Notes: generated by a model from the letters alone, not told the origin. A stretch of 64,000 bases of DNA from Candidatus Altimarinota bacterium (GCA_018608565.1 JABAZT010000020.1:60202-124201); one strand, 5' to 3'; shown: positions 17,766 to 49,033, counted from the first letter of the stretch. Program-made: numbers and translations.

Positions 17766-17841
17766 GGGCCGGTAGCTCAGTGGTTAGAGCAGGGCGCTCA
17801 TAACGCCTTTGTCGCTAGTTCAATTCTAGCTCGGCCCACCA
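17766..17841 (+). tRNA. tRNA with CAT anticodon, elongator type (Ile2-lysidine-like or Met), CCA encoded
   Basis: Manual cloverleaf, 76 nt. Acceptor GGGCCGG/TCGGCCC, D arm gctc-agtggtta-gagc, anticodon loop ctCATaa, T arm gctag-ttcaatt-ctagc. G1-C72 pair and no GGG/CCC anticodon stem, so not an initiator. Closely resembles E. coli ileX, including C4-G69 and C5-G68. Confidence 0.9.
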
Positions 17842-19481
17842 CCATCTTCTAAATCAAGGTTCAAAGTCTCATTAATACCTTTAGAATCAGCATAATCGGT
17901 TCTGACTATGTTTTTGAGCTTCCATTCGTCAGGTTTGAACCTCAACCAGAGGGTAGTAACTACTTTTTTCTTCCCAGCTGTATCGTACTCAGTACAAACA
18001 TTGACTCGATCGACAAGCAATTGCATGATCCAACGCTTTTTATCATGATCTAAATTCTTCATAAGTGTTTTTACTTTGTTTTTTGTATCAGTGATTTCCT
18101 TTACGTTAACGTGTAATTCCGAGAGGGTTTCAAGTTCTTTTTCGAGACCTTCTTGATATTCTATTTGTACTTCAATTTCCGTTTCAAGTTTTGGTGCCTG
18201 CCTTTGAAAGACTTCATCACTAATTTTTCCTTCTATCATCTTATTTTCAAGACTACATCGTTTACTTTGTAGATCTCGTAGTTTTTTCTTAGTATTGTCT
18301 AGTTGTTCTTGAAGCGTTCCTGCTTTGCTTTTTTCAATTTGTTTCCGATAATACTCTTCTACAAAAACGGATGGATCATCAAAAGCCTCTGTAATCCTCC
18401 TCCAGACGAAATCTTCTAGCGGCTTACTAGGAATTTCATTTACTTTTTGCTTTACCCCAAGATGAGTGAATGATTGTCTTCTATAGCTAGAACCTCCTTT
18501 GCTTCGCCCTGCTCCTACAAATTTTTGTGGTGGATCATAATCCATGTCATAGAGCTTTCCAGAGAGGAGGTATGACGTACTCTTCCTTCCTCCAAGGTTT
18601 TGCTTTCGTTGTTCTTGTGCAAAGGAAAACAATGTGTCAGAGATAATTTCAGGACATGCTCCGTATTCCCATTCATCCTCTGGAAGTTTATCTTTAGAGT
18701 CTGAATCCGTATAGGAAACAACATACCTTCCTAAATAGTGTGTACATTTGAGGATTGTTTCTATTTTTTCTGCGTCCCAGATCATGTTCTTTTTTGCTCT
18801 GGTGTGTTTTCCAAGAGGAATAGCCTCAGCATTAAGTTCATTCGATATCATACGTTGCCCTTTGCCTTTATAGACATAAGAATTAAAGATTCGCTCAATA
18901 ACCGCTACTTCTTCAGGAATTGGCTCTAATACGCTCCCTTTTCCCAGAGGGCTTGCCACTTTGTCGTATCCATAAGGAATACTGCTTCCAACGTAGTTTC
19001 CTGATTGGGCTGATGCGATTTTTCCTGTTTGTGTTCTACCCTTAATTAATTCTCTCTCAAATTCAGCAAGAGCTCCAAATATTTGGAATATCAACCTTCC
19101 CATTGGACCGTGGAAATCAATGTTTTCTTGAAGAGAAATAAAGCTTGTTTCGTTTTTCTTAAGCTCATCTAAGAACTGGAGAAGATGCCTGAGATTTCGG
19201 CTCATACGATCAATTTTCCATACAAGCACTGCATCTACTTTTCTAGCCTTTACGAGTTCCATCATTTTTTGATAGGCGGGACGATTTAGATCCGATCCAG
19301 AACCAGTATCTTGAAAAACCCATTCGTCTTTTGTAATAAGATTGAGTGCGGGGTTATTTTCAACGTAATCAATCAGCTTATTCTGCTGATCACCAAGACT
19401 GTAACCATCTCGTTGTTGTTCTTGCGTAGAGACTCGTATGTATATCGCTACTCTCCGTTTAGATTCATTATTTGATAACAT
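17826..19481 (-). CDS. large serine recombinase (integrase)
   Basis: 551 aa. N-terminal resolvase domain 'VAIYIRVSTQEQ...', a recombinase domain and a C-terminal coiled coil. The last 5 codons plus the stop overlap the tRNA 3' end by 16 nt. Confidence 0.9.
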   Translation of the reverse strand: MLSNNESKRRVAIYIRVSTQEQQRDGYSLGDQQNKLIDYVENNPALNLITKDEWVFQDTGSGSDLNRPAYQKMMELVKARKVDAVLVWKIDRMSRNLRHLLQFLDELKKNETSFISLQENIDFHGPMGRLIFQIFGALAEFERELIKGRTQTGKIASAQSGNYVGSSIPYGYDKVASPLGKGSVLEPIPEEVAVIERIFNSYVYKGKGQRMISNELNAEAIPLGKHTRAKKNMIWDAEKIETILKCTHYLGRYVVSYTDSDSKDKLPEDEWEYGACPEIISDTLFSFAQEQRKQNLGGRKSTSYLLSGKLYDMDYDPPQKFVGAGRSKGGSSYRRQSFTHLGVKQKVNEIPSKPLEDFVWRRITEAFDDPSVFVEEYYRKQIEKSKAGTLQEQLDNTKKKLRDLQSKRCSLENKMIEGKISDEVFQRQAPKLETEIEVQIEYQEGLEKELETLSELHVNVKEITDTKNKVKTLMKNLDHDKKRWIMQLLVDRVNVCTEYDTAGKKKVVTTLWLRFKPDEWKLKNIVRTDYADSKGINETLNLDLEDGGGPS

Positions 19482-19502
19482 CCAATGAATTATAGGAGAT
19501 TT

Positions 19503-19542
19503 TTTATAAAAATAAACCGCCCTTAAGAAATCTTAAGGACGG
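19503..19542 (-). terminator. rho-independent terminator (minus strand)
   Basis: Hairpin 'ccgcccttaag-aaat-cttaaggacgg' (one mismatch), followed on the minus strand by 'tttattttta'. Confidence 0.6.
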
Positions 19543-19562
19543 CTTTGAAAGACTGTTTAAAA

Positions 19563-19754
19563 CTAGCTTTTACTTGTTTTCTTGGGGAGACTATCAAACA
19601 CCCCACAGTGATCCAAAATATCTGTTATTTGAGAAACAGAAACTGCTTCTTTGTCAGACGAATAGCGCGTGTGAAACTGATAGGTTGTTCCACGGTTGGT
19701 TGTGAAGGACTCTTCACATTTGCCCAGATCAGGTTTGATTGGGACCGATCGCAC
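19563..19754 (-). CDS. small hypothetical protein
   Basis: 63-aa ORF followed directly by the terminator at 19503-19542. No motifs. Confidence 0.25.
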   Translation of the reverse strand: MRSVPIKPDLGKCEESFTTNRGTTYQFHTRYSSDKEAVSVSQITDILDHCGVFDSLPKKTSKS

Positions 19755-20285
19755 TCCAGTATCTTTTTTCTGCTTAGAAATGTGATAGGAGATTAGCGTT
19801 ATTTGGACGTATCAAGATATTATCTATCTTTCAAAATCCATGTTGAAGATCTTACTCTTTTTTTATTAAGATGCAAAGGTACAATACTTTGTCTACTCCG
19901 TCAATTCGTCTACTCTGCGTATTCGTGTAACTTTTTCTTTACCAGAGGGTTGAACTACTCTCTTCCACCCCCTTTAAATAGCTCATATTCTCTCTCTAGA
20001 AGATTTTTAATGTGCTATGGTGGAAAATTATTATTTTATTCAGGGTTTGTATCAAGAGTAGAGGCTAAAGATCGGTTATTGAGATTGCCCTAAGTAGTAT
20101 ATCTAAGTTGTCCCCCCTGCCTTGAACAAGGGGGATTTTTTCCTACTTACCACATTTTTTCCTGAGAGGGGCAGGTGTGCTTCTCTTGTGTGTCTTTACT
20201 GTGACTGTTTTTCGTCCTGGTTTGCCTCCGACTCTTGTCGGTCGGCATTTAGTCTTTGTTGCCATCGTTCTTGGTTTTTAATGAA

Positions 20286-20313
20286 TTAAGAAAAGCCCCT
20301 CAACTGAGGGGCT
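20286..20313 (-). terminator. rho-independent terminator after the YegP-like gene
   Basis: Stem 'agcccctc/gaggggct' with loop 'aact', then a short U-run on the minus strand. Confidence 0.55.
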
Positions 20314-20321
20314 GATTGTTT

Positions 20322-20501
20322 CTACTTTATCTCGTAGATTTTGGCAGAGGAAGCATTTTTTTTGAGTAGAGCAATACCATTTAAGGCATTCTGCTTAGTG
20401 GTATAGCCTTCGCCGCTATCTGCTATTATCTCTCCGTTACCGGCTTTTAAGTGCCACCGGTATTCTTTGGAATTGTCTTTGTATATAGAGAACCTAAACA
20501 T
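20322..20501 (-). CDS. DUF1508 / YegP-like small protein (59 aa, below the ORF-track cutoff)
   Basis: Hand translation gives 'MFRFSIYKDNSKEYRWHLKAGNGEIIADSGEGYTTKQNALNGIALLKKNASSAKIYEIK'. This matches the YegP repeat pattern (F..y.d..g.yRf.LKA.NGE.I..SegY..k..a..GI). Confidence 0.75.
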   Translation of the reverse strand: MFRFSIYKDNSKEYRWHLKAGNGEIIADSGEGYTTKQNALNGIALLKKNASSAKIYEIK

Positions 20502-20828
20502 GATTGAAATTTGTTTCTAAAATATCCTGTTAAAACAGGTAGTTAGCAGGAAGAGAAAAAAGATCCTGCTTTGCGAAGACAAATAAACTGCACCAGGTTT
20601 CTGGTGTTGAAATTTGCTTGCGCTTTCCGCAGAACCTCTTATCGTGAGGGGCGTAGCCGTCCAAAACTACACGAAGAAACTTTTTCTCGGTCACCTGTTC
20701 AAGCAGGCGGGATGAGGTTTCTTTTTAGATGATTCTGATGGTTTTTCGTTTGCTCATACCATAATTATCAGAATCCATTCGACTTTGTCAAACCTTATTA
20801 ACAACTTTCGAATTTCTGTTGAATCTTG

Positions 20829-20856
20829 TTGACAACTTTTGTGTTCAGGATAGGAT
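20829..20856 (+). promoter_or_regulatory. candidate sigma70-type promoter giving a leaderless XRE-ImmA mRNA
   Basis: TTGACA (20829-20834), 16-nt spacer, TAGGAT (20851-20856). The ATG at 20864 lies 7-8 nt downstream. Related half-sites: TTGTCAA (20785), TTAACAACTTT (20798), TTGACAACTTT (20829). Confidence 0.4.
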
Positions 20857-20863
20857 TTAGACA

Positions 20864-21721
20864 ATGGAAGATCGAAAAAAAGAAATCGGTAAAAATATTC
20901 GAAACACTCGAGAACAGTTGGGGCTTTCGCAGAGCCAGCTTGCTGAAAAGGTTGGGAAGAAATCGACAGCATTTATTGCCTACGTAGAAGCAGGAGAGCG
21001 TAATATAAGCACTTTAGATCTACTCACGATCGCACGAGTACTAGAAACAACAGTTTCAGAGTTGGTAGGAGAAGTCGAAACCAGCGATGCAAAAGTATCA
21101 ATGGCTCTTCGATCTGATCTTGGCCTCAATTCTAAAAATCGAGAAAAGGTGATTGGATATTATGAATTTTTACGATCGAAAGAGGACTCTGGGGATAATG
21201 AAAAAGTATCCATCACAGATCCTCGATACAAGGAAGCTGAAGCAAAGGCTCATGAGGTATGGAAGGAATTAGGCGAGTCGGAGGTGCCTACCAATCTACA
21301 GTCGATAGTTAAAAAACTGGGAATTCCTGTAAAAAAAGTGGAAGGAATTGATATTGAAGGACTTGCTTTTTCTTCTCGGGGAGGAGAAGTTTTTATTATG
21401 TTCAATGGGAGCGATCCATTAGCTCGTCGTCGCTTTACCGTGGCTCATGAAATTGGTCATTTTCTCTTGGATCACATTCCTATTGAAGGAGCGACTGAAC
21501 AAATCTCTCAAAACGCACAAGAAAAAGAAGCCAATACTTTTTCTAGCCACCTACTTGTTCCTCGAGCTGATCTTAAAGAATTTGTTAAAAATAAGAATAA
21601 AACACTTGAGGATATTGTTGGTCGCTACAATGTGAGCAAGGAAGTTGCGACTTATGCAGTTTTAAATACCCGAGGGATACTTGATAAACTTGCCCTAGAT
21701 CCTGATTCAGGAGGGTTTTAA
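20864..21721 (+). CDS. XRE-family HTH fused to ImmA/IrrE-type (M78) zinc metallopeptidase
   Basis: 285 aa. N-terminal 'IGKNIRNTREQLGLSQSQLAEKVGKKSTAFIAYVEAGERN' and C-terminal 'VAHEIGHFLLDH' (HExxH). Confidence 0.85.
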   Translation: MEDRKKEIGKNIRNTREQLGLSQSQLAEKVGKKSTAFIAYVEAGERNISTLDLLTIARVLETTVSELVGEVETSDAKVSMALRSDLGLNSKNREKVIGYYEFLRSKEDSGDNEKVSITDPRYKEAEAKAHEVWKELGESEVPTNLQSIVKKLGIPVKKVEGIDIEGLAFSSRGGEVFIMFNGSDPLARRRFTVAHEIGHFLLDHIPIEGATEQISQNAQEKEANTFSSHLLVPRADLKEFVKNKNKTLEDIVGRYNVSKEVATYAVLNTRGILDKLALDPDSGGF

Positions 21722-21795
21722 TTCATGATGATAAACAAAAATGGACGGCCTTCGAAATTTAGTGGATAAGTTCAGTTAAGAATTTTTGCTTAGTA

Positions 21796-22830
21796 TTATT
21801 CATCCATAAGACGTTGCCCCTCTGTTGCTTGAGCTTGAAAACGATTTATAAAAGGCTGAAGAGTTCGTGTATTGATTTGCTGTGGACTCGGAACGCCTTC
21901 TGTAAAAAGATCGTATATCTTCTCTTTCCAATTGTTACACTTAATTTGATCTGTACAGCTTTTTTGGTATTCCGACGACCATTCTTTACCAGTCTTTTGT
22001 TCTAGGAAATTTTCTATTCCCTTCCCTTGAGATGAAGAAATATTATTAATTTCGTCTATTAATTTTTGCTCTTTTGGTGGCACATCACCACTAGCGGTAT
22101 TTACATAGTAATAAAACTCAAGACGGTAAATGAAATCACTAATTTCATCAAAATTAAAAACTTTTTTAAATTCATCAGAGCGTTTATCCTGCATGTAAAT
22201 TAAAATTTCATCTGCTCTCTTATAAACCTGAAAGGCTTGCAAGGCTTCGTCAACTTCTAATGGCGAATACTTTTTATCGACCGTGATTTTTACGTCTATC
22301 ACTAAATCTGATGTAATTTTCTCAATTAACGAATTATCACAATCATCAGTAAACTTAGGGAGACAAGCTTCTTTGAATTCATTTTCATACAAAGAGAGGC
22401 GGATTTCGTTAATCCATCTTGTTATTTTCGTCTGATAGTCCTTTTGATAAGCGATAAAGTTCGACTGACTTATTACCTCTATAGCCTCGGCCACCTCTTC
22501 ATCGTATTTCAAAAAAGATTCCAAAACATCTGCCATTTCTTTCTCTTTATACACTTTCGCATGGCTTTGTTTTACTTGCTTTAAAAGCTTAACATTCAAA
22601 GCCTCTCGAATATCTGATTTAAAACGAAGAAATCCCACACGAGCTTGTCTTGCTTGTTCTTCTTGTTCTGCTTTTTGTACTGCTACTTTTGCTTGTTCTT
22701 CTCCTGCCTTCTGCCGTTCATAGCGGGAATTTAGTAGAAATGCACCACCCAAAATAAGTATTAGCAAACCAAGAGCATACCATTTGATGTTCTGTTGCTT
22801 GGTCTTGGTTACGCGAGTTTTGTTAGCCAT
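21796..22830 (-). CDS. membrane-anchored coiled-coil hypothetical protein
   Basis: 344 aa with one N-terminal TM ('WYALGLLILILGGAFLL') and helical E/K-rich remainder. Confidence 0.5.
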   Translation of the reverse strand: MANKTRVTKTKQQNIKWYALGLLILILGGAFLLNSRYERQKAGEEQAKVAVQKAEQEEQARQARVGFLRFKSDIREALNVKLLKQVKQSHAKVYKEKEMADVLESFLKYDEEVAEAIEVISQSNFIAYQKDYQTKITRWINEIRLSLYENEFKEACLPKFTDDCDNSLIEKITSDLVIDVKITVDKKYSPLEVDEALQAFQVYKRADEILIYMQDKRSDEFKKVFNFDEISDFIYRLEFYYYVNTASGDVPPKEQKLIDEINNISSSQGKGIENFLEQKTGKEWSSEYQKSCTDQIKCNNWKEKIYDLFTEGVPSPQQINTRTLQPFINRFQAQATEGQRLMDE

Positions 22831-22855
22831 GATTTTTAAAGGTTAATAAGAAAAA

Positions 22856-23284
22856 TTATCGAGTACAAACGAAGGAAACATAGTTACGACTGTCGCTGTT
22901 TTGGGTTGCCCAGTTACTTCCTCCTCCGTCAAAATGTTCAACCCACGCATACGGAGAATCTTCTTTTGAATCGTTAGTCCACAGGTGCGAAATACTACTA
23001 TTTTGTGCCTTGTAGTATTGCTTCAGCTCTTCAATAACAGGAAGTACTTGCTCTTTCTTCGCTAGATATCCATTACTCTCTCTGCAGTGCATTTTAGCTC
23101 GTGCCCAGGTTAGGTTTGTTATCGCTCCCTTGGGATCAAAAAAGCACTTATTGTTGTGTGAAAGTAGGCAGTTTACTTCTACTTTTTCGGGTTCTGAATT
23201 ATTTTCAGGTTCATCTGAACTAAAAAATACTGCGTACAAAATTGCGGGGAGAAGAACTATCACGAAGAATAAATTTTTTGGCAT
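22856..23284 (-). CDS. small secreted protein, possible C-type-lectin-like fold
   Basis: 142 aa. Signal peptide 'FFVIVLLPAILYAVF'. 'LTWARAKMHCRESNGYLAKKEQ...IEEL' and 'WATQNSDSRNYVSFVC' resemble the CTLD pattern (W.eA...C...G..La...s.eE ... W....fvC). Confidence 0.4.
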   Translation of the reverse strand: MPKNLFFVIVLLPAILYAVFFSSDEPENNSEPEKVEVNCLLSHNNKCFFDPKGAITNLTWARAKMHCRESNGYLAKKEQVLPVIEELKQYYKAQNSSISHLWTNDSKEDSPYAWVEHFDGGGSNWATQNSDSRNYVSFVCTR

Positions 23285-23324
23285 GCTGTAGGGGGGTTAG
23301 GAATACCCCACGCATAAGCAAAAG

Positions 23325-23486
23325 CGGGGCATAGTGGTCGCTACAACCTTACACGCTTTACCAGTCCACAAGTGGAAATCAAAACGGGTACTATGCCCCG
23401 TATTACTGACTCCCACTAAAAAATAGCAGTACTGGTAAATTAAATAAAAACGATGTAAAGGTTGTAGCTATTTCATTGTAATAGCT
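23325..23486. other. cluster of crossing inverted repeats (structured RNA or recombination/replication site)
   Basis: A 23325-23335 pairs with 23390-23400 (11/11). B 23340-23349 pairs with 23459-23468 (10/10, extendable past a bulge). C 23357-23365 pairs with 23431-23439 (9/9). A hairpin forms at 23466-23472/23480-23486. A-A' crosses B-B' and C-C'. Confidence 0.5.
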
Positions 23487-23599
23487 TTCCGTAACGGTGA
23501 AAAGAGTTTTTCTCTGAATTTCTCTTTCTAGAGAGATTCTTTGCTTGTCCATAACAAACTCCAAAGTAGAATATTCAATAGTATTGAGAGCAAAGATTC

Positions 23600-23848
23600 A
23601 TGCCAAAACGTCAGAAGTCTATTATCTATGATACTTTCTTTGGAAGAGGATATGAACTAGATATCTTTTGTGAACTACACAAAGAAGACGGAGTAATAGC
23701 GAGTATTACCCTTGAAGACAAAAAACAGGACAAGTCCGCTTATATTAAAATCGAAGGAGATGATTTAAAGAAAATTATTCAATTTATGAGCCGTATGGCG
23801 AATAAGAGTGAAAAAGGCCATAAGAGGTATTGGAAAGAGAAACAATAG
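23600..23848 (+). CDS. small hypothetical protein
   Basis: 82-aa ORF, convergent with the tyrosine recombinase. Confidence 0.4.
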   Translation: MPKRQKSIIYDTFFGRGYELDIFCELHKEDGVIASITLEDKKQDKSAYIKIEGDDLKKIIQFMSRMANKSEKGHKRYWKEKQ

Positions 23849-23858
23849 GAATCTTCTA

Positions 23859-24872
23859 TTAAGTTCGCTCCACAGCCTCTTGCAGATCCTCAATCCTATG
23901 CTGAGTATAAATAGCCGTCGTATTGATATTCGAATGTCCTAGGATTTGAGCTAGTCCAACCATATCATTGGGATTGGCTTGTAAGTATCGATAGGCGAAA
24001 GAATGTCGTAGTTTGTGTGGGCTACAGGGGATTCCTACTTTCTTTGAGTACTTTTCAACGATCTTATTCGTAGCCAGAACCGTCAATATCCCCCTCTGAC
24101 CAATAAAAAGAAATCCCTCGTTCTTTTGAATTTGATTTTCATAGAACTCTAGATGCTGTCTAACGAGAGATCTCAGTCGGTTGTTAAGCGGAACCGTTCG
24201 AGTTTTATTTCCTTTCGTATTTTGGATCAGGAGCGTTCCTTTTCTCTCAGATAGATCAACATGCCTTTTCTCAATAGAAACCACCTCAGAGGCTCGTAAA
24301 CCAGCAGAGAGCATGAGTTCTATCATGCATAGGTCTCGAATATTTCCAATCAGCTCTACCTCCTTTATTAATTTACGAGATTCTTGAGAGGACAGACCTT
24401 TTGGAGATAGGCTCTGTTGAGGAATAGATCGAATTCCATCCGTTGGATCATTTTGAAGGATCTTCTGTTTTAAAGCAGTCTTAAAGAATATTCTCAGGTG
24501 TGTAAGCCTCCGATTAATCGTAGCGGGCAAGAGTTCTTTGTTTTGGCAGGAAGTCCGATATTCGATAATGTCTCGAGGTATAACTCGCTGAAATTCAAAG
24601 CTTTCTCCGTTCATGGACTCATACCAGCTTAAAAAATCTTTCAGATCGTTCGAGAGAGCAATAAAGGTGTTGTCTGAAAAATCCCTCTGCGAAAGACTCT
24701 GTAAGACTGTTTCTAGATCTTTTGATTGAATACACTTGGAGATTTTCTGAGGACTTAGAATTAAGTTCATGAGACAAAGGGTTATTTGATCTATTTTAAA
24801 GCCTTGAAAGGGCTTTTGGCTACCAAATAACGACAAACTATTCTCTTCTCCGAGCGAGTGGGTGCGCCTCAA
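23859..24872 (-). CDS. tyrosine recombinase / integrase (XerC/D-like)
   Basis: 337-aa ORF. 'LSAGLRASEV' (Arg I), 'HKLRHSFA' (HxxR), 'LGHSNINTTAIYTQ' (His and catalytic Tyr). The true start may be the internal M35. Confidence 0.9.
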   Translation of the reverse strand: MRRTHSLGEENSLSLFGSQKPFQGFKIDQITLCLMNLILSPQKISKCIQSKDLETVLQSLSQRDFSDNTFIALSNDLKDFLSWYESMNGESFEFQRVIPRDIIEYRTSCQNKELLPATINRRLTHLRIFFKTALKQKILQNDPTDGIRSIPQQSLSPKGLSSQESRKLIKEVELIGNIRDLCMIELMLSAGLRASEVVSIEKRHVDLSERKGTLLIQNTKGNKTRTVPLNNRLRSLVRQHLEFYENQIQKNEGFLFIGQRGILTVLATNKIVEKYSKKVGIPCSPHKLRHSFAYRYLQANPNDMVGLAQILGHSNINTTAIYTQHRIEDLQEAVERT

Positions 24873-24876
24873 TAGA

Positions 24877-24976
24877 TTATTTAGAGAGTTTTCTATCCCT
24901 TAATTCCCTAAAAAACACCCTAGGGGTATTCAGATTCCCCAATAGTCTCTAAAGAATGGTTATTATTTAGAGAGTT
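24877..24976 (+). repeat. two direct copies of 'ttatttagagagtt' plus one inverted partial copy upstream of the integrase
   Basis: Exact 14-mers at 24877-24890 and 24963-24976. Inverted 'tctctaaa' lies near 24946. Confidence 0.6.
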
Positions 24977-25110
24977 CTTTTTTAAGCGAGTTCTTTAATT
25001 TTCATGATCTAAGCTCTATTTTATTTCATTTAAATTGGAAAATAATGTTCAATTTATCCTCTCCCCCCCCATACCCCCAATTTCGACTCGGTATACAATA
25101 TTTTGAAGCA

Positions 25111-25163
25111 TTTCAACGAGTTAACAGAGGACACTATTAAACGAATTAGGAATAAAAACTACT
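25111..25163 (+). repeat. direct repeat, left copy (36 bp perfect, about 52 bp with 3 indels/mismatches)
   Basis: 'tttcaacgagttaacagaggacactattaaacgaat' is identical to 29051-29086. The extension '..agga.t.aaaaactact' is also shared. Confidence 0.85.
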
Positions 25164-25292
25164 CACTTGTTCGCTATAGTTTGCGGATTGAAATTTTGAG
25201 TGTGAAGCTATAAGGGATTATTTCGATTCAAGATTGACACAGGGGGCTTGAGAGGTAGTCAACAGGGGATGAAGTAATAAATAGACGATGTA

Positions 25293-26216
25293 TCAGCAAT
25301 TTTTAAGTCCACAATCTTCACCGATGACTTCTAATTCGAGGGTTACATGCCCTACGTTATATGATGAGAATACTTTCCTGATACGATCTTTCATCTCTTT
25401 TTGGTTCTCCCATTGTCCTTTCCGAACAACGATGTGACAAGAGCCAATATTATTCGCTCCATCGAGTGACCAGATATGCAAATCATGAACTTCAGAAATT
25501 GCTTTATCGCTCTGTAACCCTCTTATAATTGCTGTATCATCCACATCATTAGGTACTCCTTGCAAGAATAGATGTGTTGCCTTACTCCCGCTCCGAATAC
25601 CATGGAAGAATATCCAGATAGAAATTCCTAAAGCTAGCAAGGGATCGATGATATACCACTCCGTAAAATAAATAATGATACTTCCAACTAAAACCACGCA
25701 CCACCCCAGCAGATCTTCTAGCAAGTGAAGAGAGATAACTTTTTCATTCATCGTTTTTCCCTTTTGGATTTTCCATACAGCAATCCCATTAATAAGGACT
25801 CCGAATACCGCAAAAATAAACATAATTTTACTTTGTACTTCCGCTGGCTCTTGAAGCCTCCCAATCGCTAAGTATCCCATAAAAACTGCTCCTATAATAA
25901 GTATCAAGCTATTAATCAATGCACTGAGGAGAGAGAACCGTTTATATCCATAGCTAAAAGACTTACTCCGCTTTCGTTGTCCTATCTTGGCAAAGAGCCA
26001 GGCGAAGGCTATCGCCAAGGCATCTCCCATGTCATGCAGTGCATCTGAAAGTAGTGCAATGCTGTTACTGAGGATTCCTCCTATCAACTCGATGATAGCA
26101 AAGCTGAAATTGAGACAGAACGCGATTCCAAGATTCTTAGTCTCCTCCGATTCTTGATGATGATTCGAGCAACTACAGGGCATTTTTTTTCTTTTTAAAT
26201 GGACAAGGAAGAGCAA
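25293..26216 (-). CDS. cation diffusion facilitator (CzcD/ZitB-like) metal efflux transporter
   Basis: 307-aa ORF with probable start at 'MPCSCSNHHQESEE' (about 26183). TM helices with 'LLSDALHDMGDA' and the C-terminal 'HDLHIWSL...HVTLELE' CDF signature. Confidence 0.85.
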   Translation of the reverse strand: MLFLVHLKRKKMPCSCSNHHQESEETKNLGIAFCLNFSFAIIELIGGILSNSIALLSDALHDMGDALAIAFAWLFAKIGQRKRSKSFSYGYKRFSLLSALINSLILIIGAVFMGYLAIGRLQEPAEVQSKIMFIFAVFGVLINGIAVWKIQKGKTMNEKVISLHLLEDLLGWCVVLVGSIIIYFTEWYIIDPLLALGISIWIFFHGIRSGSKATHLFLQGVPNDVDDTAIIRGLQSDKAISEVHDLHIWSLDGANNIGSCHIVVRKGQWENQKEMKDRIRKVFSSYNVGHVTLELEVIGEDCGLKNC

Positions 26217-26727
26217 GGAAGATAAGTACGGTTGGAATTAGATTGGCGATAAAATGCCACCAAACCCGAAAATTGGTCAGTGCGACCCTATCATATATAT
26301 CGGTTCCATACGGTTGGAAATATCCAAAGAGAGTACTCATTCCAATAGGTTGGTGTAAATAGTATGCAGTACAAAATAACATTATGTGTTCAAATAGATG
26401 AATAACTTGAATCCAAAATGCCCATTTAGTGTATTTGTTGCGAATAAAAATCTGAAGTCCGATTATTCCTATTAAAAACAAGGTATTTCCAATTAAATGT
26501 AACGACTCAACGCCAAGACGAAAAACACGATGATAATCCTCTTCTCCTGGAGCAATTCGTTCCCCAAGCATCCAAACAAGTTCTGTTGCCCAAGGGGTCA
26601 TATATGGCATATTTCGAAATCCTCGAAACCATTCCCAAAGTTGGATAAAATGTTCTGCAAAATGAAAAAGTTGAAATATGAGCAATGCAGATACAAAACT
26701 CGCCACGATTATTTTTACGGTCTTCAT
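26173..26727 (-). CDS. polytopic membrane protein with paired His motifs
   Basis: 184 aa. 'HFAEH' and 'HLFEH' lie within TM segments. Start overlaps the upstream gene's stop (ATGA). Confidence 0.5.
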   Translation of the reverse strand: MKTVKIIVASFVSALLIFQLFHFAEHFIQLWEWFRGFRNMPYMTPWATELVWMLGERIAPGEEDYHRVFRLGVESLHLIGNTLFLIGIIGLQIFIRNKYTKWAFWIQVIHLFEHIMLFCTAYYLHQPIGMSTLFGYFQPYGTDIYDRVALTNFRVWWHFIANLIPTVLIFLALPCPFKKKKNAL

Positions 26728-27167
26728 CGTGAATTAGAGTTAGGGCTATTAGAGAGGTGAGCCATGAAATCACTCATAAGAACTCCAGACACTGTTTTTT
26801 GATGACTTCCATCTGCTTCAAAAAATATCCCTGTATGCTTGACGGTTACGCCATAGGTTCTTCGTAATTCTAGCTCTGTATCAAAATCGGCTATGAGAAT
26901 TGCTGTGTTTTTTGGCAAAATTTGCTGATTTGAAGTGATTTGTTCAGCAAGACGCTTACATCCAGGACACCAACTTGCTCCTGCGAATACAGCAAATTTA
27001 TTACCTGATTTTTTCAAAGATTCCAACCTGTCGGCAGAATAGTTCTCCGCATATCCATGAGCCTTGCTTTTGATGGCAATTGATGACTGGTTTGATGTTG
27101 AAGTAGTGCTTTCTGTTCCACAGCCAGTAAAGATAAGAACGGTTAAGATTAATAGTAAGTATTTCAT
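26724..27167 (-). CDS. thioredoxin-fold lipoprotein (TlpA-like)
   Basis: 147 aa with lipobox 'LIFTGC' and active site 'WCPGC'. Confidence 0.75.
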   Translation of the reverse strand: MKYLLLILTVLIFTGCGTESTTSTSNQSSIAIKSKAHGYAENYSADRLESLKKSGNKFAVFAGASWCPGCKRLAEQITSNQQILPKNTAILIADFDTELELRRTYGVTVKHTGIFFEADGSHQKTVSGVLMSDFMAHLSNSPNSNSR

Positions 27168-27238
27168 ATAAAAGGTGGTTATAATAGTTAAAAGAATAAG
27201 GGGCAGAAAAAGATTCTGCCCGAGTACATATAGCTATA

Positions 27239-27568
27239 TTAAGATTCTTCCTTGAGGGTGAAGTTATAAATTCCTGTACTAATCACTCCGAAAAGAAAAA
27301 ATAATATAAATACTAGTAAAATTCCAAAGAGATCCATAGAAAAAGGAACATGAGGACTAAATATCGATGAAATATCAAAACCATGTAAAAGTAGGTTTAT
27401 CAGTCCTGTATATGCACGATCAGTCATCATGAGGACAAGAAGAATTGAAAGAATATAAAACAAGCTTCCTGTAGTCCCTAATGCAAAGCCAAACTGAAAA
27501 GAATTAATTTTTTTCATTTTTAATTTAGATGTGAGTAATACTGAAACGCTATTGAAGCATTTGATCAA
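27239..27568 (-). CDS. small membrane protein
   Basis: 109-aa ORF with likely start at M18 (about 27517) and 2-3 TM helices. Confidence 0.4.
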   Translation of the reverse strand: MIKCFNSVSVLLTSKLKMKKINSFQFGFALGTTGSLFYILSILLVLMMTDRAYTGLINLLLHGFDISSIFSPHVPFSMDLFGILLVFILFFLFGVISTGIYNFTLKEES

Positions 27569-28328
27569 TTTGCCCTTTTATCTGTGCAAAAGGGAGTGCG
27601 CCAGGTACGAATGAAATATCACCTGTTTTGTTATTTACGATAAAACTTCCTGGAGTACCAGTTACACCTGCTTTCGCTCCTTCTGCCATATCTTTTTTCA
27701 CTTTGGCAACAAATTTTTCTGATTCATAACACTCATTAAAAGCTCCAACATCCACCCCAATCTGCTGTGCAAGTACTGGAAGTTGGTTTGCATCAAGCCC
27801 CCCGTTGGATTTGGTTGTTTCGTAGACTAGATCTGTATATTCCCAAAATTTATCACCTCCTGCTATATCTCCTACACACTCAACGGCAGCCGCTTCTTGA
27901 GTAGCAAGAGGATCATGAAATCCAAGTGGGAAATGTCGATAGACCCAATTTACTTGTTCTTTATACTCTTCCATAACCTCCTTCATGGTGTTATGAAATC
28001 TCTTACAGTAAGGACACTCAAAATCAGAATATTCAATGATCGTGACAGGTGCATCAGGATTTCCTCTTACATATTCCCCATCCGTTTCTTTTTTAAGGTT
28101 CTTCTGAGCCATCTCTTGTTGGGCTTTTTCTTTCTCGATTTGTGCTTGTTGAGATTTTTTCTGCTGTTCCTGTGCATATTTTTCCATTGCAGCGCCTAGG
28201 TCCTCCTGAGAAAGCTCTCCTCCCTTGCTACCTCCCATCTGAAGTCCTAAAAACACAAGAGATCCAGTGATTAAAAGAGTAGCAAAAATAATGCTGTAAA
28301 TAAGATTGTTGTTTGATTTATCTGACAT
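27549..28328 (-). CDS. membrane-anchored DsbA-family thiol:disulfide oxidoreductase
   Basis: 259 aa. N-terminal TM, Q/E-rich linker, 'FECPYC' CxxC motif and 'GTPGSFI' cis-Pro loop region. Confidence 0.8.
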   Translation of the reverse strand: MSDKSNNNLIYSIIFATLLITGSLVFLGLQMGGSKGGELSQEDLGAAMEKYAQEQQKKSQQAQIEKEKAQQEMAQKNLKKETDGEYVRGNPDAPVTIIEYSDFECPYCKRFHNTMKEVMEEYKEQVNWVYRHFPLGFHDPLATQEAAAVECVGDIAGGDKFWEYTDLVYETTKSNGGLDANQLPVLAQQIGVDVGAFNECYESEKFVAKVKKDMAEGAKAGVTGTPGSFIVNNKTGDISFVPGALPFAQIKGQIDQMLQ

Positions 28329-28382
28329 AGTAAAAATACTTAAAGAAATAATTGACGTTTAACATTGTGTGCGAAAATATTT

Positions 28383-28814
28383 TCAAAGCCTCATTACTAC
28401 GGTTTTTGCAATTATTGAGACCCAAGGATCTGGTCTTTTTATAGTGATGATTATAGGTTTTTCATTCACCAGATAATTTTGATTCTGGTTTTTGATAACA
28501 AGACTCTCTCTTGGCTCTGGTGAATCCTTTAGATACTCTTCTTCTTTATTCTGACTATTCGCAAGATTCATATTCCATGCCTTATCAGTAATCTGGCACA
28601 TACTACACTCTTCAGAATGATGGTGTCCCATCTCGTGACAAGGAGTATCCATCTGATGCGGGATTGCATAACAACTCAAACAACCAAGGGTAAGGAGGTT
28701 TACGAGTAATATGAGAACGGAACTAGCCCAGCGAAATACCTTCATGTACCACCATATTAAGCATGAGAGAAATTGGGGCAAATTATAGCGATCTAAAAGA
28801 ATTATTGTTCTCAA
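28383..28814 (-). CDS. His/Cys-rich putative metal-binding lipoprotein
   Basis: 143-aa ORF with likely start 'MKVFRW' (about 28745). Lipobox-like 'LTLGC' and 'CHEMGHHHSEECSMC'. Confidence 0.45.
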   Translation of the reverse strand: MRTIILLDRYNLPQFLSCLIWWYMKVFRWASSVLILLVNLLTLGCLSCYAIPHQMDTPCHEMGHHHSEECSMCQITDKAWNMNLANSQNKEEEYLKDSPEPRESLVIKNQNQNYLVNEKPIIITIKRPDPWVSIIAKTVVMRL

Positions 28815-29050
28815 GAAAAATAGAATCGCCTTACTAAATAGGTCTCTAGGGAAAGATTAACTATGAAAAACCTTCCCAGAATTCGAGAACGGATTTTTAA
28901 ATCAGAGAGGATAAAGCACTATTTTAACCATTATAGAGTTAAACAGTGAATAAAAAAGCCCAAACAAGCTGTATTAAATCTGTTTTGAAGCAAATTTAAT
29001 GCCCCCCTATACCTAATATAAACGACCCGAAAACAGATGATTTAGGATTA

Positions 29051-29102
29051 TTTCAACGAGTTAACAGAGGACACTATTAAACGAATAGGATTAAAAACTA
29101 CT
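29051..29102 (+). repeat. direct repeat, right copy
   Basis: Identical 36-mer at 29051-29086, with the shared extension to 29102. Ends about 50 nt before the first ATG of the next gene. Confidence 0.85.
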
Positions 29103-29117
29103 TTAATTGTTCTTTCG

Positions 29118-30050
29118 TTGAGAAAAATCAAAAGATATACTAGGTTCTATTATATGAAAGAACTATTTCAAACATACCGACCGGGAAGAGACCGAGCTCA
29201 GATAATATCTCGAGCGGAAGATGTGCTACAAAGCTATCAACGACAAGGTTATAAGCTATCCCTCAGACAGTTGTATTATCAGCTAGTAGCTAAAAATCAC
29301 ATTGAAAACTCTGATCGTTCATACAAAATACTCTCTGAGACGATCATGAGAGCGAGAAATGGAGGTCTAATCGACTGGGACTCCATTGAAGATCGAACTC
29401 GAGGAATACGCCAACCAGCTAAGGTTGACGGATTTTCTCAGGCATTGACCAAGACAATGATGAATTATCGACTCGATAGAATGAAAGGACAAGACTACTA
29501 TTTAGAGGTTTGGATCGAAAAAGATGCTGTATCTAATATTGTCTACCGTGTTACCCAAAAGTATGGGATACCTCTAATGGCTAACAAGGGCTACAGTTCT
29601 GCGAGTGCTATGTATGAAGCCCAACAACGATTCAAGAATAAACTGTCAGATAATCCAGCAGAAAATAGGACTTCTAAGGTTTTATATCTTGGGGATCATG
29701 ATCCATCGGGGATGGATATGTTTCGTGATATTACTCAAAGAAATAGGCTTTTTAACGGTTATACTTTTTTTGAACGATTGGGGCTTAACATGGATCAGAT
29801 AGAGGACTTAAAACCACCAGAAAATCCTGCTAAGCTGAAAGATACTAGAGCAAAAGAGTACATAAAAGAGTTTGGACGATCTAGCTGGGAATTAGATGCC
29901 CTTACCCCAAACTACCTAGAAACACTCTTAGAGAATGCGATTTTACAGCATATAGACATAGGTAAATACAACGGGGTACTTGAAGAAGAAAAACAGGACA
30001 AGGCTCGGATGAGCGAAATAATAAAAAAGAACGAAGAAGAGGCTCTGTAG
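29118..30050 (+). CDS. stand-alone Topo VI-A / Spo11-like protein (5Y-CAP + Toprim), Mini-A-like
   Basis: The track ORF starts at TTG; the first ATG is at 29154 (298 aa). Motifs: 'LSLRQLYYQLV' (R-x-x-Y-Y), 'VWIEKDAV' (Toprim Glu), 'LGDHDPSGMDM' (DxDPxG). Confidence 0.6.
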   Translation: MRKIKRYTRFYYMKELFQTYRPGRDRAQIISRAEDVLQSYQRQGYKLSLRQLYYQLVAKNHIENSDRSYKILSETIMRARNGGLIDWDSIEDRTRGIRQPAKVDGFSQALTKTMMNYRLDRMKGQDYYLEVWIEKDAVSNIVYRVTQKYGIPLMANKGYSSASAMYEAQQRFKNKLSDNPAENRTSKVLYLGDHDPSGMDMFRDITQRNRLFNGYTFFERLGLNMDQIEDLKPPENPAKLKDTRAKEYIKEFGRSSWELDALTPNYLETLLENAILQHIDIGKYNGVLEEEKQDKARMSEIIKKNEEEAL

Positions 30051-30403
30051 GTGAAAGGGGGGGCGATAGTAAGAGCTATCTAAGTCTCTCTTCTATCTCT
30101 TTCTCCATTACTAAGCTCTTTTTTAATATCTATAGCTCCCTTATAAGGCTCTTTGACCTATTGAGGTTCAATTCAAGGGGATGCTAGCACTAAAGAATCA
30201 AGAAAATCCTTATTTTATAAGGACATTCTTTTCAACTACTTTGTATCTACGGATCATCAAATACCGATCACCATGCCACTCTTTTTCTCTCTGCATCTGA
30301 TACTGGGCATGAAAGATGTAGAGGTTCTGTTTACTTGGGGTTGTATTACCACATCGTCATAACCTAGATGAAGTTTTATACTTCGTCTTTTTTATAAAAC
30401 ATC

Positions 30404-34895: not shown

Positions 34896-35023
34896 GACTT
34901 CGTGTTGATCTCGACCTACTCTCCCAGGATAACTCCAAGTACCATCGGCGCTAGCGGGCTTAACTTCTGTGTTCGGGATGAGAACAGGTGTACCCCCACT
35001 GCTACTAAGATCAACACGAAGCC
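34896..35023 (-). rRNA. rrf: 5S rRNA (ends approximate; includes an extended terminal helix)
   Basis: The reverse complement contains '...ccgaacacagaagttaagcccgctagcgccgatggtacttgg...cctgggagagtaggtcg...'. Terminal helix is 'cttcgtgttgatc/gatcaacacgaag'. Confidence 0.85.
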
Positions 35024-35171
35024 TTTTTAGACGTTCGGTGACATAAGGTTCATGTAAACAACCATCTTTTTTTATCTCTCAAAGAGAGATGAAGTAAAGA
35101 ATATAAAAACTTGCAAAGATATCGTTTTCTTAAGCTTGCTCTTCCAGCAAAATATTAAGCATGAAAGAAAA

Positions 35172-38056
<2,885 letters not shown>

Positions 38057-48121: not shown

Positions 48122-49033
48122 CTACCCACCCATCTCACCAACCGCCCACACTAGCCGTTCCTTCACTGCACTATCACTCGAGCTATGTCCCGCCGGAACA
48201 AAGAATAATTCACTATGAGGATTTACCTCATGCAGCTTCCACGCATGTAACGGAGGACAAATCACATCTCGCCTTCCGTGTACAATAATCATTGGGATAT
48301 CTTTTAGCTTATTAGCATTCTTTACGATATATCCATTTTCCAAAAAACAATCATTCGCCAGATAATTACACTCCATCAACGCAAAAGATTCCGCCGGACA
48401 ATCGGCAATCACCTCATTTAGTTCCTCCTCACTCCATCCCTTATCCATCAAACTCAATTCATACCGCACCATCTCATACGCAAATTTCTGACGAATAGCC
48501 CCATCCTCAGATTTTAGCTGTGCCAAATAGTAATCCAATACATCCTTCCCCTCAGGAACCATCGAAGCAAAACGTCGATACGCCTCTGGAAAGAAAAGCT
48601 CCGTCCCTCCTCCTGTGTAATACGCCCGATCCCATCCTTCAGCGAGAAAGATTCCACGCAAAATCAATCCATTCACCATCTCTGGATACTTAATCGCAAA
48701 ACAAAGCCCCAGCGTCGACCCCCAAGACCCACCGAATACAATCGATTTCTCAAATCCAAATTCATTCATCAATTCCTTCTGATCCTCGACCAAAAAAGAC
48801 GTTTCATTTTCCCTCAGATCACAATATGGAGTGCTTCTACCAGATCCACGCTGCTCATAGAACAAGACCCGATGCTTCGCAGCATCAAAAAAATCATAAT
48901 CTTTTTCTCCAAACCCAGCTCCAGGCCCACCATGTACAAATACAAATGGAATTCCATTTGGATTTCCCCAGAGCTCATAATATAACTCATGCACCTCACT
49001 TACTCGATAATGACCAGATTTATAAACACTCAT
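48122..49033 (-). CDS. pip: proline iminopeptidase (S33 family)
   Basis: 303 aa. 'FVHGGPGAG' and 'GGSWGSTL' (GxSxG). Confidence 0.85.
   Translation of the reverse strand: MSVYKSGHYRVSEVHELYYELWGNPNGIPFVFVHGGPGAGFGEKDYDFFDAAKHRVLFYEQRGSGRSTPYCDLRENETSFLVEDQKELMNEFGFEKSIVFGGSWGSTLGLCFAIKYPEMVNGLILRGIFLAEGWDRAYYTGGGTELFFPEAYRRFASMVPEGKDVLDYYLAQLKSEDGAIRQKFAYEMVRYELSLMDKGWSEEELNEVIADCPAESFALMECNYLANDCFLENGYIVKNANKLKDIPMIIVHGRRDVICPPLHAWKLHEVNPHSELFFVPAGHSSSDSAVKERLVWAVGEMGG

Follow-up and report, generated by a model that had tools for sequence, protein, structure and literature searches.

A 64,000-nt stretch of DNA from a Candidatus Altimarinota bacterium (GCA_018608565.1, JABAZT010000020.1:60202-124201), the whole of which is called the window here and which belongs to a source genome of 1.66 Mb in 43 contigs, holds a tRNA(CAT) gene whose 3' end is entered from the opposite strand by the gene of a large serine recombinase (LSR). 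To the right of this pair lie a regulator module, a Xer-like tyrosine recombinase, a cargo cassette bounded by direct repeats and a gene of phage and plasmid type, before a DUF218 gene and topA are reached (Table 1). This region, termed the island, is probably a mobile element that its LSR placed at the extreme 3' end of the tRNA gene, and the same arrangement of LSR and tRNA end is common in genomes of the candidate phyla radiation (CPR).

Table 1. Features of the island and its borders, with positions in the window, strand and the basis of each call (ORF, open reading frame; TM, transmembrane).
Feature	Position	Strand	Basis
Host tRNA(CAT), probable integration target	17766-17841	+	ARAGORN, Rfam, whole-genome tRNA list
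LSR, 551 aa, probable integrated short form	17826-19481	-	Pfam, phrog_95, NCBIfam
attL core CACCA (discriminator-proximal C, A73, CCA), probable crossover region	17837-17841	+	Identity end in related LSR elements; same 5-mer at proposed attR
ORF-poor 1.4-kb region	19482-20863	.	ORF list; no Rfam match
YegP/DUF1508-like gene, 59 aa	20322-20501	-	phrog_1422, E 8.5e-15
XRE-type HTH fused to ImmA/IrrE M78 metallopeptidase	20864-21721	+	Pfam HTH_3, Peptidase_M78; phrog_2439
Two genes: 344-aa protein with N-terminal TM segment; 142-aa secreted protein with weak lectin-like pattern	21796-23284	-	
82-aa ORF, listed between the 142-aa/344-aa genes and the tyrosine recombinase			
Xer-like tyrosine recombinase	23859-24872	-	Pfam Phage_integrase and SAM-like N domain
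Pair of direct TTATTTAGAGAGTT copies, upstream of the tyrosine recombinase gene	24873-24892, 24958-24980	+	
Left direct repeat, ~65 nt, 36-nt perfect core	25100-25165	+	Repeat search, alignment
Six-gene cargo operon: CDF cation efflux, DUF6008, thioredoxin, DUF5676, DsbA-like, 143-aa unknown protein	25293-28814	-	Pfam, NCBIfam
Right direct repeat, ~65 nt, just upstream of the 310-aa gene	29040-29104	+	Repeat search, alignment
Phage/plasmid protein, 298-310 aa	29118/29154-30050	+	phrog_6247 'DNA topoisomerase', E 3.5e-89, full length
Proposed orphan LSR C-terminal tail GDRYLMIRRYKVVEKNVLIK, then stop, 19 codons	30210-30272	-	Six-frame reading; motif common to long-form LSRs
Proposed attR core CACCA, host DNA from 30274	30269-30273	+	Antisense TGGTG in attL frame
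Host intergenic remainder with bidirectional terminator hairpin (30366-30388) before DUF218	30274-30403	.	Hairpin; DUF218/TopA adjacency in G014

The C-terminus of the LSR reads ...LEDGGGPS, and its TAG stop falls at 17826-17828, within the tRNA gene. An earlier note on this DNA had claimed that the last five codons, GGGPS, and the stop overlap 16 nt of the tRNA, and the gene coordinates bear this out, the overlap having a length of 1 modulo 3. The genome contains three tRNA genes with a CAT anticodon, all different and each in single copy, so that the one adjoining the LSR is a host gene and not cargo of the element. The last five LSR codons with their stop are probably host tRNA sequence read in antisense. 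The same note had seen in the overlap a typical signature of restoration of the tRNA 3' end upon integration. This part did not hold up, as no copy of the tRNA 3' end (16-28 nt, with 2-4 mismatches permitted) was found anywhere in the genome, and the boundary in the LSR family described below lies at the terminal CACCA. A direct repeat of the tRNA 3' end was thus dropped as a candidate for attR, and a 9-mer, GGCCCACCA at 48924, was judged a chance match to the tRNA end because it sits inside an ORF beyond TopA and the 23S and 5S rRNA genes.

The LSR carries the Resolvase (PF00239, E 1.1e-39, residues 11-162) and Recombinase (PF07508, E 9.1e-17, residues 189-295) domains of Pfam, and its residues R16, S18, D91 and R92 fall in invariant columns of the clade alignment. 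It was assigned to the phrog_95 integrases in PHROGs, the top NCBIfam model was CcrB with a score under the cutoff, and solved structures were matched by sequence only in the catalytic domain. More than 100 proteins of the clade align with it at 40-46% identity across 89-100% of its length, and it takes a position at the base of the main clade. Pfam gave no match to the zinc ribbon PF13408 in this protein; four zinc-ribbon cysteines are lacking across the whole clade, and a ribbon domain without zinc is possible.

Homologues of the LSR were then considered at 73 loci from Peregrinibacteria and Gracilibacteria. At 49 of the 73 the recombinase ORF enters the 3' end of a convergent tRNA gene, while four have a tRNA within about 110 nt or less, 11 are cut by a contig end and nine have no tRNA. 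The anticodons at the overlapped loci are varied (Met, Ile, Leu, Phe, Thr, Val, His, Lys, Ala, Arg and Tyr), and the overlap measures 1 modulo 3 in 45 of the 49, which indicates a fixed reading frame relative to the CCA end. The stop common in the family is a TGA supplied by the antisense of the T-loop TTCAA; in the window copy, a TAG in the T-stem precedes it.

Where the attachment site of the free element lies is indicated by four tRNA-free loci (L075, L078, L085 and L095), whose LSR ORFs are 40-70 codons longer than the integrated ones, so that attP probably lies inside the LSR gene. When attL and attR were joined in silico for five integrated loci, the joined frame stayed open for a further 33-57 codons in four of them. 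In the related pair L077/L108, changes in this extension fall 11/9/22 across the codon positions, mostly on third positions, with 14 synonymous against 15 non-synonymous codon changes, and similarity stops about 15 nt past the stop. A tail motif, G-x-[S/G]-G-Y-x-[LIVF]-F, is common to long-form LSRs in the public protein collection and follows the Gly-Gly encoded by CCA. Only on the free element, it thus seems, does the LSR carry a conserved tail.

Near-identical integrases at different tRNA genes narrowed the crossover position. The LSRs of L072 (tRNA-Met) and L073 (tRNA-Phe) are 94% identical, and identities of 86-90% link those of L061 (Met), L064 (Phe) and L095, the last in free form; in both sets DNA identity runs through the LSR tail and ends right after TGGTG, the antisense of CACCA. 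The crossover is thus probably in or next to CCA, and the choice of target appears to be generic for tRNA 3' ends. Dyad-centre estimates from three attP sites lie within about 4 nt of the CCA end. A crossover at this position would leave the tRNA hardly altered, and it would also explain why no tRNA fragment is found at the far end of the window island.

Six loci do have a 10-17-nt copy of the last tRNA nucleotides, anchored exactly at CCA and lying 6-10 kb inside the element. The consensus beside these copies, TGG-N16-RGKTAY-N4-5-TBTTC...TTCC, also stands directly after the LSR gene in the tRNA-free locus L075, and its part TGG-N16-RGKTAY-N4-5-TBTTC was read as a putative P arm of the attachment site. 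The simplest reading of the tRNA-end repeats would be that they are P arms resembling the tRNA arm. Two loci contain the attR-type repeat and P arm in tandem, in two or three copies (L069 at 1323, 1488 and 1661; L090 at 3187 and 5864), and these resemble scars left when elements inserted one after another at a single tRNA. In the genome G016, whose LSR is taken up below, no attR was found.

The right end of the island had been left undefined in the earlier note, near 30.05-30.40 kb. This bracket could be kept and tightened. The DUF218 gene and topA to the right of the island are adjacent in the relative G014 as well (49% and 68% identity) and are therefore host genes, so that the island ends between 30051 and 30403, a span of 353 nt between its last gene and DUF218. 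Only one CACCA in this bracket has its antisense TGGTG in the frame of attL together with a tail that fits the family motif. The candidate tail would join in frame to residue G547/G548 of the LSR in an excised circle, and a CGGTAT stands at 7-12 nt from the core, with CGATAT placed likewise in L078, the nearest basal relative. The pattern of TGGTG with an in-frame tail occurs five times genome-wide on both strands and once in the bracket, against 5e-4 expected; since this pattern was partly defined after the fact, the end at 30269-30273 is put forward with only fair confidence. With this end the element would tentatively span 17842-30273, about 12.43 kb. The free form of the LSR is then predicted to have 567 aa, ending ...LEDGGDRYLMIRRYKVVEKNVLIK, and the predicted empty site consists of tRNA-CCA, 130 nt with the bidirectional terminator, and the end of the DUF218 gene. 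Two T-loop-like sequences were set aside, namely a first attR candidate, GTTCAATTC at 30166 (CA at tRNA-like spacing; ungapped score 15/24, with about 0.1 expected in the bracket), which the 30269-30273 site superseded, and a match at 25047 that was judged to be due to chance. A comparison of the left end with the right intergenic regions gave no convincing inverted repeats.

The interior of the island is a mosaic, and the modules that the earlier note had named (YegP-like gene, XRE-ImmA fusion, second recombinase and repeat-flanked cassette) were all recovered by Pfam, PHROGs and repeat alignment. The tyrosine recombinase matches the XerC, XerD and XerA models of NCBIfam under their cutoffs, and a second, more typical copy of such a recombinase is encoded on contig C6 of the same genome. 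Specific homologues, at 44-45% identity, were found only in G016 and on contig C106 of G012. In G016 the homologue lies 4.4 kb from an LSR, a spacing as in the window. In G012 a homologue of the 310-aa gene is found 1.8 kb away from it, the two genes being divergently oriented. Their contig bears phage-like genes and shows no LSR; as it ends inside the recombinase gene, an adjoining LSR is possible there. The TTATTTAGAGAGTT pair upstream of the recombinase gene recurs upstream of the homologous genes in both, and the pairs outside the window (L035 529-548 and 618-631; L029 14096-14111 and 14182-14195) bring the occurrences to three otherwise unrelated elements. These pairs are candidate binding or recombination sites, or an operator.

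Between the tyrosine recombinase and the 310-aa gene, the window copy holds a 3.9-kb metal and thiol-redox cassette, in which the CDF to DsbA-like genes span 25293-28328. The ~65-nt repeat at its edges has two copies only in the genome and was not found in the G012 or G016 elements. Recombination between the two copies would restore an arrangement like that of G012, which makes the cassette a secondary insertion. A paralogous cluster of CDF (73%), thioredoxin (56%) and DUF6008 (71%) genes in another order is present on this contig too, 66 kb away, outside the window and near the contig's end (G000:C40:156727-158745), and the cassette may be derived from, or exchanging with, such a chromosomal or other mobile copy. 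An integron was considered and rejected, as the integron integrase model gives a score of 75.8 where 265 is its cutoff, the genes of the cassette are oriented towards the recombinase, and the flanking repeats are direct ~65-nt copies that do not resemble attC. No tRNA fragment was found near the tyrosine recombinase, and I infer that this enzyme acts on sites of its own, resolving or exchanging modules there, and that chromosomal integration is not its task.

The 310-aa gene had been described as Topo VI-A-like. Its PHROG label and the Toprim-like E and DxD motifs, which are invariant in the phrog_6247 family, agree with this, whereas the fold does not add to it: the AlphaFold model (pLDDT 89.5) had no significant match to the PDB by Foldseek (best E 0.009, TM-score about 0.2), and the family profile had no PDB sequence match either. 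The cautious label of a phage-type Toprim-like protein was therefore kept. Homologues of phrog_6247 occur in 84 phage and 50 plasmid records, and the family numbers more than 8000 proteins with no source name beyond 'hypothetical protein' and no Pfam model, one member having an incidental Pfam match. It is thus a common phage and plasmid protein that has a confidently predicted fold and lacks a significant PDB neighbour.

Among the remaining genes, the XRE-M78 fusion is likely the regulator of the element, and the 344-aa and 142-aa proteins had no PHROG match and only sub-threshold Pfam matches. A permissive Rfam search found no RNA families in the non-coding regions of the island; one of these, 23285-23599, contains the long-range complementary segments GGGGCATAGT ... 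ACTATGCCCC and likewise has no Rfam match. No capsid, tail, terminase, relaxase, type IV secretion, coupling or secretion family was detected by Pfam or PHROGs in the island ORFs searched, which agrees with the absence of capsid, tail and conjugation genes reported before; by gene content the island is neither a prophage nor an integrative conjugative element. Outside it, 23S and 5S rRNA genes occupy 34903-38051, with 1.2 kb between them and topA, and since the window holds no 16S gene, the rRNA operon may be unlinked.

Taken together, the stretch 17842-30273 is likely an integrated mobile element, non-viral, non-conjugative and mosaic, that a CcrB/DsiB-like LSR placed at the extreme 3' end of tRNA(CAT), as the earlier note had proposed in outline when it suggested a small integrative element, or a composite of two, at this tRNA. 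Direct support is given by the geometry of LSR and tRNA, the pattern across the family, the mosaic structure and the host flanks, DUF218 and TopA. In 40 relatives no comparable locus was seen to carry the island genes, isolated homologues being all that came up. The host is a CPR bacterium similar to Peregrinibacteria or Peribacteria, and the LSR is a member of a large CPR clade specialised on tRNA 3' ends. Its attP would lie within the 3' end of the LSR gene, with the crossover in or next to the tRNA CCA, such that the tRNA would remain essentially intact after integration. Integration would further swap the C-terminal tail of the LSR for a handful of codons read antisense from the tRNA and a stop codon within the T-arm, and in the window copy a 19-residue tail would have been left at the far end of the element. 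The mosaic is composed of the LSR with a regulator module (YegP-like gene and XRE-M78 fusion), of the Xer-like tyrosine recombinase with the phage-type Toprim-like protein as a pair, and of the cassette with its direct repeats, inserted between the genes of this pair.

Several results weigh against this interpretation. Searches with the exact proteins of either flank, together with two scans of metagenomes and one of viral contigs, gave no close relative, and neither an empty site nor a circular junction was found. The window LSR is divergent, with at most 46% identity to any other LSR, and there is no cysteine between residues ~296 and 400 in either the window LSR or the clade consensus. In the stretches of sequence retrieved, an attR repeat was found at only six of 35 family loci, against about 2.3 expected from controls. 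On the island itself, the P-arm consensus RGKTAY-N4-5-TBTTC, 19 nt from the core, has no match on the minus strand, the predicted attP shows no clear dyad symmetry, and the attR call is made up of a 5-nt core and a tail motif, in a pattern that took part of its definition from the candidate itself. The host-like composition of the island belongs here as well, since it implies that the insertion may be old and no longer mobile. A look for the empty site through synteny in relatives, as the earlier note had suggested, failed because DUF389 and TopA are unlinked in them, and the CAT tRNA beside DUF218 in G014 is a different CAT tRNA.

The best of the alternatives accepts entry by the LSR and supposes that the functional attR or the directionality factor was lost afterwards, leaving a fossil fixed in the chromosome. 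I regard this as unlikely overall, though it is the alternative with the most to say for it. The island had been described as visibly richer in AT, which turned out not to be the case: its GC content is 38.0% and that of the genome 38.7%, which puts the island at the 19.5th percentile among stretches of equal size, and its tetranucleotide distance reaches only the 88th percentile. This mild deviation would suit a fossil, as would the lack of a long attL/attR repeat, a tail of 19 codons where relatives have about 30-57, and the fact that no recognisable directionality factor was found in the island. Then again, the ORFs of the LSR, the tyrosine recombinase and the regulator are all intact, LSR sites do not need a long repeat, and host-like composition is expected when elements circulate within one lineage.

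A weaker alternative splits the island into two independent neighbours that integrated separately, namely an LSR element of ~5.7 kb (17842 to about 23600) and a tyrosine recombinase element (about 23600-30270) with the cassette and the Toprim-like gene. The cargo is indeed not common to the LSR relatives, on the contig of G012 the tyrosine recombinase accompanies the 310-aa gene among phage-like genes where no LSR is visible, and the structured non-coding stretch at 23285-23599 could mark a junction. Set against this, G016 also has an LSR and the tyrosine recombinase homologue at a distance of 4.4 kb, neither a tRNA-end repeat nor an LSR tail was found near 23.3-23.6 kb, and the orphan LSR tail at 30210-30272 lies beyond the tyrosine recombinase module; as the G012 contig ends inside the recombinase gene, an LSR may have adjoined it there. 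Two separate integrations are considered distinctly improbable.

Still less credible is a reading in which the island was integrated by the tyrosine recombinase and the LSR is just a resolvase or invertase that abuts the tRNA by chance. tRNA genes are classic targets of tyrosine integrases, and serine integrases were not known to target them according to the Islander paper (PMC4383910), but the recombinase in question is Xer-like, and lies 6 kb inside the island with no tRNA fragment near it, while the LSR/tRNA geometry is seen at 49 of 73 loci, among which G016 alone has a homologue of this recombinase; this explanation is strongly disfavoured. That there was no insertion at all, and that the block beside the tRNA is ordinary vertical inheritance as its host-like composition might suggest, is refuted by a patchy distribution, since the island genes are missing or scattered in 40 relatives, with no conserved synteny of the block among them, while the flanking DUF218 and TopA are conserved, and since hallmark genes of mobile genetic elements are present (LSR, Xer-like recombinase, phrog_6247 and the XRE-M78 fusion).

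Returning to an LSR-placed element, a more far-reaching model may be offered tentatively, and I would rate it below an even chance. The clade would recognise a generic tRNA 3' end (T-arm and CCA), cross over in CCA and so colonise different tRNAs without damaging them. The C-terminal mini-domain encoded across attP would be full-length only on the free circle and truncated upon integration, acting as a built-in switch of activity or direction that replaces or supplements a directionality factor. In the window copy a Xer-like recombinase would complement this by exchanging cargo modules at ~65-nt sites of its own.

The targeting of tRNA genes is conventionally ascribed to tyrosine integrases. 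Contrary to this textbook assignment, a whole clade of serine integrases would target many different tRNAs across Patescibacteria, and this seems to be among the chief ways in which these very small genomes acquire cargo, metal and redox genes for example. For genome engineering, serine integrases are the tools of choice, and if the model is true, a family that aims at a universal motif, the CCA end of tRNAs, and whose tail varies with the state of integration would interest tool builders and provide a testable model for the control of recombination direction. For the source genome, 12.4 kb can be marked as accessory DNA, and an empty site is predicted.

The closest published precedent found, and the only published description found of an LSR/tRNA-type design, are the ssrA islands of Dehalococcoides with their integrase DsiB, whose gene may be complete or fully functional only on the circular element (McMurdie et al. 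2011; PMC3146451). Compared by description, DsiB is a CcrB-like LSR at the island edge, as is the window LSR, and its gene, too, always overlaps with attL, located at the 3' end of a gene for a small structured RNA, with the stop only in the target. The islands are likewise of a mobilisable type without transfer genes and with variable cargo. They differ in their target, a tmRNA gene with a direct repeat of the 20-nt class, whereas the CPR clade uses many tRNAs and has ~5 nt in common in the window copy. DsiB is further accompanied by a constant module of six genes, among them that of a second, small serine recombinase (DsiA), and the host phylum differs; neither a second small serine recombinase nor ParB or Mom homologues were found among the island ORFs with Pfam and PHROGs.

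Canonical LSRs (phiC31, Bxb1, A118/LI, TP901-1, SPbeta SprA and SCCmec CcrAB) share with the window LSR the Resolvase and Recombinase domains and a long C-terminal part in which one stretch is helical (coiled-coil-like). Their att sites are likewise short and lack long homology, and their gene also lies at the edge of the element. Unlike it, they use protein-coding or intergenic targets and not tRNA ends, their genes do not span attP, and they carry a Cys4 zinc ribbon where the clade of the window LSR has no cysteines.

Tycheposons of Prochlorococcus are, like the island, small cargo-carrying elements at tRNA genes in streamlined genomes, and in a survey of them an LSR in place of a tyrosine recombinase is given for 27 of 937 elements (tycheposons and related cryptic ones; 10.1101/2020.12.28.424599). 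As described there, they mostly have tyrosine recombinases, leave partial tRNA copies and often encode a primase or helicase, unlike the window island, in which no replication gene is recognisable; an attP that spans a gene is not reported in the text consulted. The SSV1-type ('suicidal') tyrosine integrases of archaeal viruses and plasmids (PMC7253208) come nearer in this last respect, as their recombination site also lies inside the integrase ORF and integration into a tRNA gene alters the integrase gene. There, a tyrosine enzyme is involved and its gene is split into two large halves, whereas the window LSR would lose only a short C-terminal tail. In the window copy, the design of an LSR at a tRNA end is extended by a further recombinase, Xer-like in type, and by a cargo module that lies between repeats.

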